NCBI GenBank assembly: GCA_000004695.1
Contig: CM000154.2
Coordinates: forward strand, 4,576,001-4,640,000
Length of the DNA stretch: 64,000 nucleotides
Direction: 5' to 3'
DNA from: Dictyostelium discoideum
Lineage: Eukaryota
Part shown: one piece after another, positions 50,019 to 63,849 of the stretch
How the letters are laid out: each line of letters opens with the position of its first letter
Position numbering within the stretch: the stretch's first letter is position 1
The notes under the pieces: generated by a model
What the model was told of the DNA's origin: nothing
The model's database searches: none
Seen by the model: only the letters and a program-made list of their open reading frames with translations
Translations under genes and position numbers: made by a program

Positions 50019-50880
50019 CTAATCTAATGATTGTATTAATTTTGAATTATTATCTAATAGTTTTGAACCGAAATGACCTGAATAAATTGTACTATCGTAT
50101 TCATGATTTAAATCTTTTAGTAAAACTGGACATGATACGAATCCATTTGCAATTGTATCAATATTAACTCTTGGCCTTGGAAAATCCTCTTTTTGATTAC
50201 CCTTATATGACATTATATATCTATCATCATTATATTTACCATCATTATCGAATACACAAAAAGTAGCTAGCCAACCTGTTAAAACTGATCCACCAGATTG
50301 TGATTTATAATCAACGATTTGATTCCACCAAGTTGTATCAGGATTTCCATTTGCAGAATCAATGAATTTATCAATCACTGGTAATAAATAAACTAACCAT
50401 TTTTTAATTTCACCATTTTTATTATCGAACTGAATTAATTTTTCAACTCTTTCTTTTAAATTTATCTAATCATTAATTTCACTTAAAAATGTTACTTCTG
50501 AAAGTCCACATAATGATTGGAAAACAAACTTAAAATAATTTTTCATTGTTGACATTAATGCAATTGAAAATACAACTTTATCAGATTCTGTTGTAGTTGT
50601 AAAATCTGGTATAATTAAATCTTTAATTGATGGATCTTTAATATTTGATTGAATTTGATTTGACATTTCAATTGTTAATTTATCAAAAGGTGCTTTTAAT
50701 ATTGGATATCCTGTCTTAACTACTAATTTCTTTTAACCAGTAAAATCTACAAATTTTTCACGTAATTCTTCAGAGTTTTTATTTAAATAGATGAAAATTG
50801 AGTTAATATTGCCATCCAGATATTATCTGGACGTAATACTAAATGATTGTGATTATTATAACTTTCCCAATAGTTCGTTT
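50019..50880 (-). pseudogene. Decayed tandem duplicate of the 3' two-thirds of gene 48322..49596.
   Basis: About 85% identical, including the 3' flank (compare 49930-50020 with 48240-48330), but with internal stops and frameshifts. The track splits it into ORFs 50019..50378 and 50466..50666. It has no 5' part. Confidence 0.65.
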
Positions 50881-52183: not shown

Positions 52184-54889
52184 TTATTCTTTTTCAATAC
52201 AAACTTTAACTTTGTATTGTATTTGATGAAGGATAGAATCAGAATAATCGATGGATCCAGATTTAACATTATAACAAATGAGGGTATTATTATATGCATA
52301 GTTAAATTCTACTTCTTTTGGATAACAGGCAAGTTTACTTGATGCAGAGTTGAATTCTGTGATAATAGTTTGATTGGTAATTACAATTGGCTCTACTTCG
52401 GATGGTGGAACTTCAAAGCATGCAGAATAATCTGAAGCTTTTACCAATGAATTCTTTGAGCATGATGAGTATTTATTGTAATTATAGCATTCTACATTAT
52501 TAATGAATGAATGTTCAGGTTCACCGCCATCACTAACACATTCAACAATGTTTGATTGGGTTTCACTATTTGAACAGAAAATAGTAGAATTATGATTGTA
52601 TGTATATTCGTTAAATCCATCTTTACAATAGATTGGACTATTTTGACCATAGATTATCATTGATTTTTCATTGGCATCATATTCACATTTTAATGAACTT
52701 GAAACTTTTGAAACCGTTGGAATAGAGAATTTATAAGATGCAGATTTTGAACGAACACCACAATTAATTTCAGTTCCAAAGTTGGTTGTATTACATTTAA
52801 TACCATTATTATTAGCATTAATTTGACAAGTGAATGATTTGTTGAAATTGAAACTTAAATTATTATTATCAATACATGTTACAGTTTCATTGAATTGATT
52901 ATCAATTGTAAAGATACGATCATTATGATTAATTGAGAAAAATACTGCAGAGTAAGGTGTTGAAGCAATTGATAAAAGATTGGATGTTGGTACTGGTGCT
53001 GTTGATGATGATAATAGGTTACCACCCATTGATGATTTTGTTACCACCATTGCTAAAGCTATAGTTGATACACGTTTAATACCATTCTTTGCAACCTGAG
53101 TTACAACTCTTCTTGTTACTGCTGCGAATCCAAATTGTAATGATTTCTCTAATGCTCCTGAAAATGATGCTGTAGATGCTAATATTGAACCAGATTTAGC
53201 TGCTGTTGCAGATGTTGCCAATGCTATTTGTGTAAGTGGTAAAGCAGTTGATGCTAATAATGCTGCTGCAACCAAAGCTGCTAATCCAATAACAATAAAA
53301 ATTACAATATTTGTTGGAGATTCTGGATCAACATAAGAAAAGTAATTATTAAGACTATTTAATTGACTTTGAACATTAACACGAATTGGTAAACCTTTTC
53401 CTTTACCTGGTGGTACAGTACATTTTACATTTTTAGAATCAACCCACTCCCAGTTGACACAAAGTACGCCATTAATAGAAACTGTACCATTTGACGAATT
53501 AACAGAGTTTTTCAATGATTTTGGAACAAAGTCATAACCTTTGATTGTAATAGTTTTACCACCTGAAGATGGTGCTGCATATTGTTTATTATCCAATGAT
53601 GGTGGATTATAAGAGAATGATCTTGTTTCATTTGATTTTTGTCCACCAACTAAAAGTACAACTGAATGGTTTTTACCAATACCTGCAACTGGATTAAATG
53701 AGAAACTTGTTGAATTAATCCATTTAATATCTTTATATTGAGTTTTACCATTGATTGTTATTGAATTTACTGAAACATTTTTGTTTTCTTCTTTATTATA
53801 AAAATCTTTTAATTCAGCGGGAACGAAATTGAAACCAACATATTTAATATCAGTGGCACCATCAGTTGATACTGTAATTTTATTTGTAATATTTGGTTTA
53901 TTATAAGAGAATAAAAGTTGATTTTCAGATTTTTGTTCACCAATAGTAATATTAACTTTTAGATTGGCACCGATACCAGGTGGAATAATACAACTAACAT
54001 TGGTTGAATTTATCCATTGAACTGATCCACATTCAAATGTACCTATATAAATTCTTGAAGTATTTCTCCAAGATGCAATTGTTTTATTTGAATCATAAAA
54101 TGGTGAAATAAATTCGAATGGATTGAAATTAAAACCTGTAATATTTAAATATTGTGGTTTTTGTGGAGGAGTTACACAATTTAATCTACTACAATTACCA
54201 CCATGAGTATCTGAACTATTGGCAGTTAAGAATTTGGAAAGCCATGGTAGAGAATATGAATATTTATAAGTATATCTGGCAGTGTTTGCAAGTGTAACTT
54301 GGATTGTTCTATTAGCACCAACATTTATTGGGAAACTACATAGGTAAAGATCGAAATCGGTTGAATAATATGCATATTGGGATTTCAAGTATGGACAAAT
54401 ATTTGAATAATCGATTTTACTATTTGCAATTACATCTGAAGTACAACGTTGAATTTCACAAAATGAGTCAGTGCCATCCACTGTTGCTTCTGGAATTTCT
54501 TCAACAATCGAACCTAAACCTCTACCAACTATCCAATATTGATTTATATTTGATGTATTCAAATGTTTATCATCGTAATATAATTTATCAATAATCATTG
54601 ATGGATATGTAAATTTAATCGATGCAGTTGAGGCATTCATACCTGTGTTTATTGCAAAAACATTTACAGTATAAAAACCTGGTGGTACAATAACCTCCAT
54701 AATCTTATCAGAGGTGAATTTTGTAATTTCTGCAATTTCTGAACCAAAATAGATATTTGTGCTTCCATTGAAAAAGTTTTGACCATTAATAGTTACTACA
54801 TCTCCAATTTTACCTGTTGTTTTTGATAAACTACTAATAATTACATTTTCAAATGTAAAGTAATTTACAACACCACTTTTAATATTCAT
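52184..54889 (-). CDS. IPT/TIG-repeat protein with a hydrophobic Ala/Ser-rich segment and a Cys-rich C-terminal region. Probably the 3' exon of the giant gene that begins at 60495.
   Basis: Multiple TIG-like units (GDVVTINGQNFF..; LNITGFNFNPF..; ITINGKTQYKD..; ITIKGYDFVP..). A hydrophobic stretch (IVIFIVIGLAALVAAALLAS...) is followed by a 330-aa Cys/N-glycosylation-rich tail. There is no signal peptide at its ATG. The upstream ORF ends ..GSK + GTATGT at 55018, only 125 bp away, and an acceptor AAAAG|TGG at about 54878 keeps the frame. Confidence 0.55.
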   Translation of the reverse strand: MNIKSGVVNYFTFENVIISSLSKTTGKIGDVVTINGQNFFNGSTNIYFGSEIAEITKFTSDKIMEVIVPPGFYTVNVFAINTGMNASTASIKFTYPSMIIDKLYYDDKHLNTSNINQYWIVGRGLGSIVEEIPEATVDGTDSFCEIQRCTSDVIANSKIDYSNICPYLKSQYAYYSTDFDLYLCSFPINVGANRTIQVTLANTARYTYKYSYSLPWLSKFLTANSSDTHGGNCSRLNCVTPPQKPQYLNITGFNFNPFEFISPFYDSNKTIASWRNTSRIYIGTFECGSVQWINSTNVSCIIPPGIGANLKVNITIGEQKSENQLLFSYNKPNITNKITVSTDGATDIKYVGFNFVPAELKDFYNKEENKNVSVNSITINGKTQYKDIKWINSTSFSFNPVAGIGKNHSVVLLVGGQKSNETRSFSYNPPSLDNKQYAAPSSGGKTITIKGYDFVPKSLKNSVNSSNGTVSINGVLCVNWEWVDSKNVKCTVPPGKGKGLPIRVNVQSQLNSLNNYFSYVDPESPTNIVIFIVIGLAALVAAALLASTALPLTQIALATSATAAKSGSILASTASFSGALEKSLQFGFAAVTRRVVTQVAKNGIKRVSTIALAMVVTKSSMGGNLLSSSTAPVPTSNLLSIASTPYSAVFFSINHNDRIFTIDNQFNETVTCIDNNNLSFNFNKSFTCQINANNNGIKCNTTNFGTEINCGVRSKSASYKFSIPTVSKVSSSLKCEYDANEKSMIIYGQNSPIYCKDGFNEYTYNHNSTIFCSNSETQSNIVECVSDGGEPEHSFINNVECYNYNKYSSCSKNSLVKASDYSACFEVPPSEVEPIVITNQTIITEFNSASSKLACYPKEVEFNYAYNNTLICYNVKSGSIDYSDSILHQIQYKVKVCIEKE

Positions 54890-55015
54890 TTTTATATTTT
54901 TAAAACAATAAAATGAAATATAACTAATTAATTTAATTAAAAAAAAAAAAAAAAAAAAAATTGTAAATATATTATGTTTTTAAAATTAAAAATTATTATT
55001 AAAAAAAAAATTAAT

Positions 55016-57015
55016 TTATACATACTTTGAACCAGCACCAATTGCCTTAATATAAAATTGTGTATTTGTTAAAAATGTAATTGTATCTGTAACATTAGTT
55101 TCACCAATTTTTACAACCAAACCATATCTACTATCAGTTGCTTGTAAAAAGTTTTCACCAGTAACAGTAATTAATGAATTATATTTTGGATTTGTAGCAG
55201 AGTAAGTAATTTTAGTTACAGTTGGAATTGGGAATTTGAAGTAATATAATATATTTCTTGGATATAATGATTCGTAAATATTTTTGGAATATTCATTATA
55301 AATTTTAATTCTTTTATTTTGAAGACCGATAGTTAATGAACTTAATCTAAAGATAATTCTACATGTTCCGTTAGTGTATCTTTGGATGGAATTAAAACTA
55401 GCTTGACTTGAACCAACATATGCAAAAAGTGTATTGGTACTTGTTGGACAAAATCTGGCATTGACAGTAATCTCTTGTGATTTTACAGTAACGTCATCAA
55501 CAATTGGACCAATTGGACATGAATTAATGATTTTTCCACTTTGGAAATCTTGAATTGAAGATTCAATGAATGAACAAATCTTAAAATTTACAAAAACCAT
55601 TGATAAACCAAAAGATGAATTGGTTTTTGAAGGAGCGAAATAAGTATCAAAATTTGTATAACTTTTTCTGGTTGAATTGTTTTTCAATGCTAATTTAAAT
55701 AAATCAGAAGTAATTTGTTTTATATCGTCAAATGAATTCTTTGGTTTAACTTCTGTGGATGTATATGTACAAACATAATGACGAGTTGTTGAATCTACAT
55801 ATTTTGAAAGAATATTAATTTTTGAAACAACATTTGTAAGTTTTAAATATTCATAGAATTGACCTGATCTCCAATTTCCAATAATTGGATTATCAATCCA
55901 TCTTTTTTCAAAGAATTTAATAACTTTGGCAAATGTGGTAGTATTATATTTTATTAATTCATTTGGACAAACACCAATTGTTAAAAGAGTACTATTTAAA
56001 TCATTTTTAGTATTTAATAAATTTAAATCCTATTTTTTTTTATAAAAAAAAAAAAAAATAAAAAATAAATATTAATATGATATATATTTTTAATATTAAA
56101 ATAAAAATATTTTTTAAAAAAAAAAAAAAAACTTACATTTTGGGTAATACCAGTACAATTATAACGGCAATAATCTCTTGATGGACAATTTCTAATTGTT
56201 TCTGTAGTGAATGCATTTGCAAGTGTGGTTTCTAAAAAGGCACAAGTTTTGTTATTGATAGAGATAATAGTAAGACCTAATGCTGATGGACTTGATGGGT
56301 GTGGTGTGTGTGTAACCGTTAAACCTCTATCTACTTGTCTGTGAATTGATTGATTAGCAAACTTTCTAAGATCTATTGATTGATCTAAAATACTTGAAAA
56401 TGTTTTAAATTTGCCAGTGGAAGATATGTAGCTACAATAATTATTATTTGTTTTAGTGACAAATTTTGAAAGGATTTGTTTGGTAATTGTGGAATTGGTG
56501 AATAGGAGATTATAGAATTGGCCAGTAGTCCAATCATTTGGTATTTTGTTGTCATACCAATATTGTGAAAATAATGTTGATAATTGAATATCTGTGTAGT
56601 TTGATTGGAATTCACCACCACAAACGCCTCCTGAAAGAAGAACATGAGTGATTGAATTAAATGTATAAGCTCTTTGAGGTGTTCTACAGGTGTACTCACA
56701 TGGATTTTTAAGGGCTGGATTATTGGGGTAAATTTGTGAGAATGTTTTAGTGCATGCATGTTCTGAATACACCCCAATATAAATTTCTGCACTTGATTTT
56801 GATATACTATAAATACGGAATGGATATAAAGTATTACATCTTAATTGTAATGTAAACTTTCTATTTGTTGTGCCAGTATAAGTGTGTATTATATCTATTC
56901 CAGATGATTGATATCTAAATTGTTGAGATTCAACGCTACCATATGGAATGGTTAAATTCATACATGATTGATATGCAACACCTGAGATCATACATTGATG
57001 CGTGTTTCCACCCAT
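55016..57015 (-). CDS. Cys-rich repeat protein segment: complement(join(55016..56029,56137..57015)). Probably the middle exons of the same giant gene.
   Basis: GTAAGT donor at 56136..56135 and acceptor AATAG at 56031..56030, both phase 0. Encodes ..CEYTCRTPQRAYTFNS.., ..DYCRYNCTGITQN|DLNLLNTKNDL..HYVCTYTSTEVKPKN.. and a TIG-like end. The ATG at 57015 is preceded by an in-frame TAG. The link to the upstream exon at 57267 is unresolved; a possible micro-exon lies at about 57175. Confidence 0.5.
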
Positions 57016-57266
57016 ATTAAAATAAATCTAAATAAATAAAAAAAATAAAAAAAAAATAAAAAAAAACGAATGGATTTAGTAAATTTTTAATTTTAGTTTT
57101 AATTTTTTTTTTTTTTTTTTTTTTTTTTATAAGATTTAACTTACTGTATCATATTCATATTTATATATGTAATTACCTGATGAAATACTTTAAAATAAAA
57201 TAATAAAAACGTTAATATTTGTTATTTTTTAAAGGGGAAAAAAAAATATAGAAATTATTTACTTAC

Positions 57267-57774
57267 GTTTTGAGAGGTCTCAAATCAATATAGTTATCGA
57301 GTAATACGTTATGATAGAGAGCTGAAACAGTTTGTTGACAAGCATATTTGGATTGAATATTTAAATTGTATGTACACATTGGATTTTCACTGTATGATGT
57401 AACTTTATAATTTTCAGTTTTGTTGCATGTGAATGAAAGTTTGAGTGTTCTTTTATAACCTGATGAGGGACAATCACTATGAGTAGTAAGACCATATGAT
57501 TTGATTGATAAACTATTAGCTGAATATTGATAATATTGTGTTTTTCCAAGTGGATAAGTATTTCTATTGGAACTTAATATTTGACAAGCAAAATTATCAG
57601 CTCCACAAGAAATAGGTTGAATTCCGAAATTATGATAATAAGAAGAATCATAATTACCAAATGTTAGACCACGGTATTCAATTGAACCATTTCTTTTTAA
57701 AATAAATAAATAAAATTATTAATAAATAAAATTAAGTAATAAATAACTAATAATAAATAAATAACCAATAATAA

Positions 57775-57825
<51 letters not shown>

Positions 57826-59505
57826 TACATTGTTCTATTTTGTAATGGTGAAAAATCAAATACTTGACCATAAAAAGTACTACTGGAAGTAGGATTACTT
57901 CCAAAGTATTCATAATATGCTAACGGACATGCATTTTTGGATGATGCATAGATTGTTTGATTGCAAATAGAGTTATTAACAGTGGTTAAGACGGTGAATT
58001 CAGTATTGGAGCATCTAATATATACCTTTATCTCTGGTTTGGTTGTACAAATGGTAGGGGTAGATGATGAATTAAATGAAATTAAAATATTGTTTGATGT
58101 GTTACTACTTGCAATAAATGGTACTTTGGATACTGTTGGTTTATCAAAGAATGGAATAGTTGTTTTTCCAAGTCCTAAAATAAGACAACCATAATACTTT
58201 CCACTTAATCCTGAGAATTTATTACATACATCAACAGTACCACCACCGAAATTGAAAAGGAATCTATTGAGCTCTAGAGCTGACGAATATGGATTTGATG
58301 ATGATGTTCTTTAATAATTTTTTTTTTATCAGTAAAATAAAACGAATAAAAGAAAATAATAATAATAATAATAAAATACATACAATTTCAATGATCTTAA
58401 ATCATATTGATTGCCACCAAATAAGTATTTGTTTTCAATTGGACAAGCAAATTTAGTGGAGATTTGAACATCGTAGACACATGTTGAACTTTCCACAAAG
58501 CCTTTAATTGCATAGTTTTGAGTTGTATCACAAGTTAAAATAAAGTTACTTATTCTATGATAACCAGTTTGATTGGTACACTTGGTACTATCGATTTTTC
58601 CTGATTGGTATTGAATTGTTAAACCTTTATCAAAGAATTGGACATGACTGAATAGAGTAATACCAGTTGGATACCTTGTGCCATTGACTGAAACACATGA
58701 TTGAATTGGACCCTCACCAGCTGTAGCAGTACATAAAGTTGATGTTTCACAAAGACCAAAATAAAAAATGTTGCTACCATTTGTTGTAGTAAATTGTGAT
58801 GATCCTAAAACACTATTATAATGGAAATATTGAGATTAATTTAATTTAATTTTTTAAAAATTTAAAATAAATAGGTTAGATAATAAAATAATGATAAATT
58901 AAAATAAAAATAAAATAAAAGAATACATACTTTGAAGTTGGTGATAAATCGAAAAATCTATTTTTAGAATCTTGGAAAACACATCTATTTTTAGAATCTT
59001 TAGTATGTGGACTTTCCACTCTAGCATTTTGAATGAAATCATCGTAGTTTGTATCAGAGTATGTATAAACATAATTGTAAAGACTATAAAATGGAATGGT
59101 TTTTGGATTTCCAACTTCTACAGGTAATAATGATTGAATAGAATTAACTTGGTCTTCCAATACACCAATTGAAGCACGAGAGGATATATCGATTGTCTTT
59201 GATTGAGCAGAGGTTGAATTTGATTCGAGTGATGATGTTTTTGGTGCAATGAATTGACAATTACTTTCAAAGAAACACAAATAATTTGAATTTAACGATT
59301 GATAAATCATTGGTTTTTTATCATTATTGGCTGCATTTAATAACTCTATGAAATATGTTTTGAAATCATAAACATTTTCATTATTACTTAACACATCAAT
59401 TAAAAATGATACACTTGATTCTTTAAAACCTTCTAATTCATATAAATCATAAAAGAATGATGTTATTGAAGAGCTGTAATATGAGGCGTTACTTTTAGAT
59501 TTTCT

Positions 59506-59550
<45 letters not shown>

Positions 59551-60495
59551 GAGTTAGATATTTTCCTTTATTTTTTTAAAAAAAAAAAATGCAATAAAAA
59601 CCCAAAAATATCTTACATTAAATTTTTCAAATCATAAAAAACATTTGCATTCTCGTTATAAAGAAAAGACGAATTTGATTGTTGTTTTGTGTGGGAATTC
59701 TAAAAATAAAAAAAAAAAAAATAAAAAAATAAAAAAAAAAAAAAAAAAAATTGATGGTTAGAAAAAAGAAAAAAAAAAAAGAGGTTGGGAAGTTGTTACC
59801 TTTTTGATTGAGATTTGTAAAAAATTTAGAAAACCTTTTAAAAATGAAAGGGTTTGAGTTTGTTCGGGCTTGTTTTCAAAATCATTGTATCCATATAAAT
59901 TTTTTTCGTTTTCATTATATAACGATGGTTTTAAATTTTTAATTATTTGGTGAGAAATTGATTTATAAATATTTTCAAAATTACCATTACCCAGTTTAAT
60001 TGGAAGTGTGTTGATATTATTTAAAATTGCTACTGAATTATTAATTTTAACATTAATATCCCCAATAATTGATTTAAATATTGATAATGATTTAATTTGT
60101 TGTAACTCTTTATATAATATTATATAATTATTATTATTACTGTTTAAATAGTATCGTTGATTTGTTTGATTAAATAATAAATCAAAACTAATAGTTTTAT
60201 TATTTTCAATAATTGAAATATTATTAATTTTATCTTCAAAATATAATTTATTTGGCTTAAATATTGAATCATCAAAACTAATTATACTACTTCCATTAGT
60301 AGTTGTATTAATTTTAATTAAATCATTCTTATTTTCCAATGTTACTTTTGAATTTGGTAAATCATAATTATTAAAAAGTGATAAATAACTTATTAAAAAA
60401 TTATTTGGTTGGATTATTACCTTTTTATTTTCAATCGCACCAAAAATGGATTGAATGAAATAAAATGAAATAAATATTAATAAAATTTTTTTCAT
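57267..60495 (-). CDS. Secreted protein with tandem MRH-like repeats, exons 1-6: complement(join(57267..57692,57829..58308,58384..58812,58931..59503,59617..59699,59800..60495)).
   Basis: Exon 1 has a signal peptide (MKKILLIFISFYFIQSIFGA) and a GTAACA donor, phase 0. Exons 3-6 are each about 430-570 nt, phase 2 at both ends, and each encodes one repeat ending in a C.Y...I.(S/T)K(Y/F)AC(P/Q) motif plus a (Y/F)DL..L motif (FFDLSPTSK, QYDLRSLK, VFDFSPLQNRT, YIDLRPLKT), as in mannose-6-phosphate-receptor-homology repeats. GTATGT, GTAATT and GTAAGT donors. All six exons were checked by codon counting. Confidence 0.55.
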
Positions 60496-60526: not shown

Positions 60527-60540
<14 letters not shown>

Positions 60541-60606
<66 letters not shown>

Positions 60607-61081
60607 AATAAAATAAAATAAAATTAAATAAAATAAAATGTTCAAAATTTTTTAGAATAAATCATGATTGGTTTGGTATTTTTAGCATCAAAAGATATTT
60701 CAAAGAAAAAAAAAAATAAAAAAAATGAATTGATATACACCAAGATTTTGCTCGTTTTTTTTTAAAAATTTTGAAACGATATACACTAAAATATTGAACA
60801 TTCAAGAAAAAAAATTATTTTAAATAATTTTAAATAAATAAAAAAAAACAATCAATATTTTAATGTTTACTATGAAGCATTAAAAAAACGCCATCAATAT
60901 TTTAGTGTATATTGTTTAAAATTTTTTAAAAAAAAACGAGCAAAATCTTGTTTTAAATCAATTTTTTTTATTTTTTTTTTTTCTTTGAAATATCTTTTGA
61001 TGCTAAAAATACCAAACCAATCATGATTTATTCTAAAAAATTTTGAACATTTTATTTTATTTAATTTTATTTTATTTTATT

Positions 61082-61134
<53 letters not shown>
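60541..61134. repeat. Roughly 600-bp palindrome: A64, 101-bp perfect arm, imperfect inner arms, about 60-bp centre, 101-bp arm, T51.
   Basis: 60605..60705 is the exact reverse complement of 60983..61083. Inner segments 60706-60810 and 60880-60982 are about 80% reverse-complementary. The flanking homopolymers are A(n) on the left and T(n) on the right. It lies between the divergent starts of the minus-strand gene (ATG 60495) and the DNase II gene (ATG 61184). Confidence 0.85.

Positions 61135-61183: not shown

Positions 61184-63849
<2,666 letters not shown>

Follow-up and report, generated by a model that had tools for sequence, protein, structure and literature searches.

A probable single ten-exon gene of Dictyostelium discoideum joins tandem MRH repeats and a TIG stalk in one putative membrane-anchored lectin

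Gene structure at the locus

The window, i.e. the whole stretch of 64,000 nucleotides (nt) of Dictyostelium discoideum DNA analysed here (contig CM000154.2, positions 4,576,001 to 4,640,000), contains on its minus strand, between positions 60495 and 52184, a locus that the AX4 reference annotates as two genes. There is good reason to regard it as a single ten-exon gene, in which tandem MRH repeats (homology to the mannose-6-phosphate receptor) and a stalk of TIG domains belong to one membrane protein with a lectin-type role. The ten exons comprise 7365 nt and form an uninterrupted frame of 2454 amino acids (aa), from the ATG at 60495 to the stop codon at 52184-52186, with GT..AG at each junction. 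The assembled protein is 100% identical to P0009 (GenBank KAM9948371.1, D. discoideum), and the locus is assigned to a D. discoideum gene because its protein is identical to database proteins of that species. The order of domains is signal peptide, an Asn-rich region of ~415 aa, four MRH repeats, two modules with six Cys each (6-Cys modules), at least five TIG domains, a transmembrane (TM) segment and a C-terminal domain of 353 aa.

Exon 1 (59800-60495) encodes a signal-like peptide (60436-60495, MKKILLIFISFYFIQSIFGA; Kyte-Doolittle peak 1.96 at aa 1-23) and the Asn-rich N-terminal region, which has no family match in Pfam. Exon 2 (59617-59699, 83 nt) begins in phase 0 and ends in phase 2, and the following four exons begin and end in phase 2. 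Exon 3 (58931-59503, 573 nt) is non-MRH apart from its last 12 aa, which constitute strand 1 of MRH repeat 1. The bodies of repeats 1 (aa 437-578), 2 (aa 582-726) and 3 (aa 737-876, six Cys) are located in exon 4 (58384-58812, 429 nt), exon 5 (57829-58308, 480 nt) and exon 6 (57267-57692, 426 nt), respectively. Repeat 4 (aa 883-1006) is distributed over exon 7 (57145-57187), a 43-nt micro-exon (T-ISSGNYIYKYEYDT) that both P0009 and P0010 of AX4 contain and that lines up with the corresponding strand in repeats 1-3, and exon 8 (56137-57027), which furthermore encodes 6-Cys module A (aa ~1010-1207). Behind intron 8 (56136-56030, 107 nt), exon 9 (55026-56029) contains 6-Cys module B (aa 1208-1400), a stretch that resembles TIG, and the beginning of TIG1 (~60% of it). 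Intron 9 (54924-55025, 102 nt, 4.9% GC, GTATGT..TTAG, phase 2) is the site of the AX4 two-gene split. Exon 10 (52184-54923) completes TIG1 and encodes TIG2-TIG5, in which there is a Cys-containing insert, followed by the TM segment (53246-53314) and the C-terminal domain (52187-53245).

This structure agrees in most borders with a first-pass annotation made from the letters of the window. Its start codon indeed opens the ten-exon frame, and the borders it gave for five exons (59699-59617, 59503-58931, 58812-58384, 58308-57829 and 57692-57267) are all flanked by AG and GT. Phase 2 at both ends, claimed for all five, is found in exons 3-6, and exon 2 starts in phase 0. Its open reading frame (ORF) 55016-57015 is interrupted by intron 8 and connects to exon 6 only via the micro-exon, which it had missed; the product, expected to exceed 2500 aa, amounts to 2454 aa.

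The GC content of the window is ~20%. The nine introns are 75-136 nt long with 4-15% GC, the exons have 18-32% GC, and 15 of the region's 16 rows of tandem repeats fall into predicted introns or flanks, and a single weak one into exon 10. Intron 5 contains an (AAT)n microsatellite in 37 copies (57709-57825). A homopolymer run of ~105 nt (T on the coding strand) is located just upstream of the start codon (60534-60638), and a second one of ~82 nt at 61050-61131, in the spacer shared with the divergent neighbouring gene.

MRH repeats

The assignment of the four repeats to MRH is firm. A profile of the four repeats searched against the PDB matches CI-MPR, the cation-independent receptor of mannose-6-phosphate, over nearly the whole domain (E=7.6e-11), and all ten matches listed at E<=10 are MRH proteins. 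A profile of 21 sequences, i.e. the four repeats plus the repeats of homologous Dictyostelium-group proteins, matches full-length CI-MPR with E=2.5e-48 (profile positions 5-138 of 140 aligned), and the PDB matches at E<=1 are MRH proteins in 26 of 26 cases (CI-MPR, CD-MPR, ERLEC1, glucosidase II beta and GNPTG). An AlphaFold2 model was made of repeat 3 only; on the 21-row alignment it possesses nine strands at a pLDDT of 75.3 and a pTM of 0.72, and with a 4-row alignment exon 6 reached just pLDDT 37. In a Foldseek search of this model against the PDB, the top 50 matches are nearly all MRH-fold proteins (best TM-scores 0.6-0.7; CD-MPR E=3.4e-8, TM-score 0.67-0.70). The predicted structure of repeat 3 is thus of the all-beta MRH type, a flattened beta-barrel.

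Repeats 1 to 4 contain 7, 6, 6 and 4 Cys, respectively, in columns common with CI-MPR domain 3. The MRH framework of 6-8 Cys is accordingly found in the first three, and repeat 4 is degenerate. Pairwise identity among the repeats is 19-31%. Exon and domain borders are offset by ~12-15 aa, as the YDL strand at the end of an exon already opens the MRH domain that follows.

The MRH homology itself had been proposed by the first-pass annotation and is borne out by the CI-MPR profile match and the MRH-like model of repeat 3. Of one MRH-like repeat in each of its five exons, the claim holds for exons 4-6 and fails for exons 2-3. Its C-x-Y...A-C motif is exact in repeats 1 and 3 and loose in repeats 2 and 4, and a motif of the type (Y/F/I)D(L/F)xxL precedes the donor at all five exons. 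Exons 2-3 were considered as a fifth or sixth MRH repeat and rejected: hmmsearch with the four-repeat profile is silent there, and hhalign, at a probability of 7%, aligns just the last 12 residues, i.e. strand 1 of repeat 1.

Word-indexed searches recover little of this family. With the 757-aa MRH region, the sole return of a word-indexed protein search is a broken D. dimigraforme model, and the identical D. discoideum cluster is missed; the 21-repeat alignment gives no matches in such a search, and an exact-sequence look-up of two window ORFs likewise gives no match.

Modules, stalk and membrane segment

The two 6-Cys modules are paralogous, ~190 aa long each, and share invariant C, C, W, W, C, G, L, C and C. 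Profile searches detect no relative of them in Pfam or the PDB, and the module is regarded as lineage-specific. The TIG stalk, postulated by the first-pass annotation as IPT/TIG repeats, is recovered by Pfam TIG (PF01833) above the gathering score, in five tandem stretches (E=3.2e-27, 94.8 bits; 27, 35.3, 40.3, 19.5 and 63.5 bits per domain), and two more TIG-like stretches are discernible by eye. One hydrophobic segment downstream of the MRH repeats is strong (aa ~2079-2101), and another is weak. Together with the N-terminal signal-like segment, both expected by the first-pass annotation, this single strong TM segment points to a type I membrane protein. The last 353 aa (aa 2102-2454) constitute a 14-Cys domain, which is also conserved among the paralogs.

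Sugar-binding residues and probable function

Mannose is bound in MRH lectins by a set of Gln, Arg, Glu and Tyr. Aligned to CI-MPR domain 3, repeat 3 keeps all four (Gln791, Arg835, Glu856 and Tyr862). Repeat 1 keeps Arg537, Glu558 and Tyr564, with Val at the position of Gln, and repeats 2 and 4 have lost their sugar-binding residues. In addition, repeat 3 has SSGYKR where CI-MPR domain 3 has SSGFQR, of which Ser386 and Arg391 are, as we take it, the assigned residues; the likeness is a lead and not a test of binding of mannose-6-phosphate (Man-6-P).

Judged from these residues, we infer that repeat 3, and possibly repeat 1 with its Arg, Glu and Tyr only, may bind a mannose-type N-glycan. The protein as a whole is most likely a membrane-anchored lectin for mannose-type glycans on a TIG stalk. 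Repeats 2 and 4 would serve as structural spacers, as do most CI-MPR domains, the 6-Cys modules and the TIG stalk would hold the lectin head off the membrane, and a lectin anchored in this way would act at the cell surface or in the endo-lysosomal system.

Several observations weigh against this reading. The glycan binding is predicted solely from four conserved residues. Neither the whole window protein nor its separate repeats match CIMR, PRKCSH_1 or Man-6-P_recep of the Pfam clan M6PR, and ATG27 scores 20.1 bits on repeat 3, below its cut-off of 27 bits. The profile search that the first-pass annotation had suggested for the translation therefore found TIG and left CIMR silent, formally the outcome it had set against itself, yet the repeat profile matches CI-MPR. 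The paralogs P0003 and P0004 pass the gathering cut-off of PRKCSH_1 (25.4 and 27.1 bits vs 23). We take the Pfam miss of the window protein as a failure of sensitivity and not as an absence of MRH. The C-terminal domain (aa 2102-2454) contains no DxxLL, [DE]xxxL[LI] or NPxY and a single YxxPhi at 2199; hence an MPR-style trafficking cycle is not indicated, and with no sorting motif, just four repeats and an extra stalk the protein does not fall among the MPR-type sorting receptors. Its topology is put in doubt by P0003, in which two strong hydrophobic segments and a Pro/Thr-rich linker (aa 2798-2920) stand before the equivalent domain, so that the C-terminal domain may be extracellular. To judge from the shortened and frameshifted copy in D. 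dimigraforme, at least one relative can do without the gene or is losing it. Finally, the AX4 reference divides the locus at the intron 55025-54924 into DDB_G0290815 and DDB_G0290813.

It is unlikely, though well short of negligible, that the locus is one gene whose MRH repeats are purely structural, bind no sugar and leave adhesion or recognition to the TIG stalk, like the Tgr proteins of Dictyostelium. Repeats 2 and 4 without binding residues and repeat 1 without Gln would fit this, as would the long TIG stalk, the missing MPR-type sorting motif and the tandem and duplicated paralogs, which are 5-9% apart within genomes of the D. discoideum group; LERP and TvMPR, too, lack the Man-6-P-binding residues (PMC8717582). 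Purely structural repeats would, however, not account for repeat 3, in which all four residues are kept, also in the corresponding repeat of P0003 and P0004, with an overall identity of only ~27%. Retention of the tetrad in paralogs so divergent argues for selection on the sugar pocket, i.e. for the lectin.

A more specific proposal is improbable in our view: that the protein or its family is the Dictyostelium receptor for phosphomannosyl-type N-glycans, for long reported as missing. Repeat 3 would be the candidate site, because it combines the intact Gln/Arg/Glu/Tyr pocket with an SSGYKR loop like that of CI-MPR domain 3. Lysosomal enzymes of Dictyostelium bear Man-6-P methyl diesters. The organism was described as being without any detectable mannose-6-phosphate receptor (PMC2114169).

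One gene or two

The two AX4 proteins are P0010 (DDB_G0290815, Q54FJ0, 'MRH domain-containing protein' in UniProt, 1544 aa), which consists of exons 1-9 plus Lys-Tyr-Val from intron 9, and P0012 (DDB_G0290813, Q54FJ1, 'IPT/TIG domain-containing protein', 901 aa), which starts at the ATG at 54889. Residues 1-1541 of the splice model are identical to P0010, and residues 1554-2454 to P0012. Taken at face value, the AX4 records describe a secreted 1544-aa MRH protein ending at TAA 55016-55018 and an independent 901-aa TIG membrane protein from ATG 54889. We consider such a pair of genes very improbable. The two listed proteins, the A-rich context around ATG 54889 and the in-frame stop in intron 9, three codons past the donor, speak for it. 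However, the gap between the two halves on the same strand is just 126 nt and would need to hold both a terminator and a promoter; a gap of this length is intron-sized and well below the typical intergenic length in Dictyostelium. It contains canonical GTATGT..TAG ends and 4.9% GC, as do the other eight introns, and the 901-aa product has no signal peptide, although TIG domains and a TM segment are present.

The division would, moreover, sever TIG1. The end of exon 9 matches only positions 1-52 of the 84 positions of the Pfam TIG profile, and the absent strands can be placed in the opening 31 aa of exon 10, a stretch that begins 11 codons upstream of the AX4 ATG. A TIG1 split over exons 9 and 10 supports one gene. 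At the syntenic locus of D. dimigraforme, the intron-9 site has the identical TCAAA/GTATGT donor, the same phase and a TAG/T acceptor. The coding stretch before the ATG reads FISLYYYKDFKMDLSNGVNNYFAFE there and YISFYCFKNIKMNIKSGVVNYFTFE here, with zero indels; the intron itself is unalignable, whereas the 33 nt upstream of ATG 54889 are conserved codon by codon. The paralog P0003 shares the intron at the homologous site and in the same phase 2, and a single high-scoring segment pair (35% identity, aa 1197-2075) runs across it. An alternative acceptor at 54876/54875, which also keeps the frame, was rejected, since it would delete strand F of TIG1, and the 16 residues it skips are conserved in D. 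dimigraforme.

Database proteins agree with the joined model. In an exhaustive phmmer search of 1.84 billion representatives, the exon-9 peptide matches seven proteins, all in the Dictyostelium group, and the best match, P0002 (2456 aa), aligns over residues 1208-1541, the same place as in the model. The 90% cluster of P0002 contains P0009 (2454 aa), three further strain versions (2429-2462 aa) and both AX4 proteins. Five newer strain annotations give one protein of 2429-2462 aa; these single-protein records derive from the de novo annotation of ten isolates, AX2-214 among them (PMC12745789).

That 52184-60495 is a single gene is supported by this sequence evidence. The AX4 model would be an artefact of the gene finder, in which the donor of intron 9 was read through to the stop three codons on and a new start was set at the first ATG that is in frame in exon 10. 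A peptide across AIGAGSNYISFYCFK or any peptide within NYISFYCFKNIK would tell of the joined 2454-aa protein. The observation behind the first-pass annotation is partly confirmed and its interpretation of one protein supported, by the independently predicted GenBank protein, TIG1 across intron 9 and the intron conserved in D. dimigraforme and the paralog.

For regulated retention of intron 9, with a secreted 1544-aa MRH form beside the membrane-bound form of 2454 aa, the chance is slim. Speculatively, retention would append only Lys-Tyr-Val before the stop, but the shortened form would stop inside an incomplete TIG domain and is unlikely to fold. An end of the gene at TAA 57262, which sits within the GTAAGT donor 57266-57261, has practically no chance and was refuted, as MRH repeat 4 runs on, in register with repeats 1-3, through the micro-exon and into exon 8, and P0010 of AX4 and P0009 both contain exons 7-8.

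Paralogs, relatives and neighbouring genes

The layout of one repeat per exon in phase 2, which the first-pass annotation had ascribed to exon duplication, is shared with P0003, where phase-2 introns stand immediately after the YDLxPxxx strand of its repeats 2-4. The four-repeat layout is therefore older than the split of the paralogs, and repeat 3 is nearest to the repeat 3 of the paralogs. An origin of the MRH repeats by exon duplication fits these data: an exon with phase 2 at both ends would have been duplicated to give the four repeats, earlier than the divergence of the paralogs.

Members of the family have been duplicated and are diverging, with copies 5-9% different among D. discoideum-group genomes. 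The genome of P0009 holds a second, 93%-identical copy (P0013, 2462 aa) on the same 5.29-Mb contig, 88 locus tags away, and a paralog of 3199 aa stands in tandem behind P0003 (L002 13446-14241). In D. firmibasis, the TIG and hydrophobic segments of P0004 (L003 2001-10391) precede its MRH repeats, and the model ends near the equivalent of intron 9; it has the appearance of a truncated prediction in which tandem family members were mis-joined. Errors of annotation seem to be frequent in the MRH-TIG family.

The D. dimigraforme copy (L001 10001-14921) is shortened. MRH repeats 3-4 and some of the TIG block are missing, the frame shifts without gaps of intron size, and an in-frame TAA stands shortly before the site that corresponds to intron 9; either decay of the gene or errors of long-read assembly would account for this. 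Upstream of it, three ORFs (L001 3683-4261, 4788-5612 and 6054-7115) match the MRH-repeat profile with E ~1e-8 to 1e-9, which may suggest a further MRH-repeat gene nearby. In the window, the MRH-TIG gene has a DUF4419 gene downstream of it (50019-50378, minus strand), and DUF4419 also flanks the D. dimigraforme copy (L001 8586-9824 and 16132-17382); these flanks in both species indicate synteny.

On the other side, a DNase II-like gene (61184-62554, plus strand; Pfam DNase_II E=1.2e-26) is arranged divergently to the MRH-TIG gene across an AT-rich spacer of 688 nt. The paralogous locus has the same head-to-head DNase_II neighbour (L002 1-1502, minus strand). In P0006, a DNase II domain is fused to the same 6-Cys module and TIG stalk, and different 'heads' thus seem to share one stalk, as far as can be judged from the sequences. 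If the family did comprise the phosphomannosyl receptor, the pairing with DNase II and the DNase II heads on the same stalk would point to an endo-lysosomal role.

Previous records and significance

Domain labels in databases and, since 2025, the merged gene model were known already. The literature and supplements on DDB_G0290815, DDB_G0290813, Q54FJ0 and Q54FJ1 hold no functional study, and the sole mention is in a list of failed knockouts, insertional mutants of DDB_G0290815 having not been recovered (PMC7190356). No paper was found that unites Dictyostelium, MRH and TIG, and none that reports the joined architecture, the intact repeat 3 pocket or the mis-annotation in AX4.

The proposed model corrects the AX4 annotation from two 'hypothetical' genes to one protein of 2454 aa, which alters the reading of knockouts, expression data and proteomics at this locus. 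The combination of four MRH repeats with two novel 6-Cys modules, a TIG stalk, a TM segment and a C-terminal domain containing Cys is an undescribed architecture, which the exhaustive search recovers in only a handful of Dictyostelium-group proteins. With its tetrad, repeat 3 is a candidate that can be tested for recognition of mannose or phosphomannose in an organism in which no receptor of this kind had been found, and the phase-2 layout of one repeat per exon, kept between paralogs, provides a clean case of domain expansion by exon duplication.

Comparison with known systems

CI-MPR is the best match in both sequence and fold, with alignment of the full-length domain. Like the window protein, it has a signal peptide, tandem MRH repeats and, behind them, a single strong TM segment, and Gln, Arg, Glu and Tyr are kept in just a subset of its repeats. 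The window protein differs by four repeats instead of 15, arranged one per exon, by the lack of an FnII insert and by two 6-Cys modules and at least five TIG domains between lectin head and membrane. Its C-terminal part is a Cys-containing domain of 353 aa, whereas the tail of CI-MPR carries an acidic-cluster dileucine motif.

Few tandem MRH repeats on a membrane protein of a non-vertebrate are likewise found in Drosophila LERP and in the TvMPRs of Trichomonas vaginalis (five MRH), in which most Man-6-P-binding residues are missing and the short tails contain YxxPhi or DxxL[LI] (PMC8717582). The window protein differs from these in that the tetrad is retained in repeat 3, a motif of the DxxL[LI] type is absent and a TIG stalk is present.

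The MRH lectins of the endoplasmic reticulum (ER) and Golgi, i.e. OS-9, XTP3-B/ERLEC1, glucosidase II beta and GNPTG, share the MRH fold and the C-terminal C-x-Y...A-C motif with the repeats, and the Pfam model that P0003 and P0004 pass is PRKCSH_1. The Glu-to-Tyr spacing of 6 in the repeats presumably resembles that of OS-9 and glucosidase II beta. Unlike the window protein, these lectins are soluble and lumenal with one or two MRH domains, and PDB matches to them span just the last ~50 residues, whereas matches to CI-MPR span the whole domain.

The TgrB1/TgrC1 family of the same organism likewise has TIG repeats followed by a TM segment and is duplicated and diverging; the likeness is one of general layout only, and to our knowledge Tgr proteins have neither an MRH head nor 6-Cys modules. 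Identical in sequence to the window protein are DDB_G0290815 together with DDB_G0290813, into which the reference splits the gene, and KAM9948371.1, the merged record, which is named 'hypothetical protein'.

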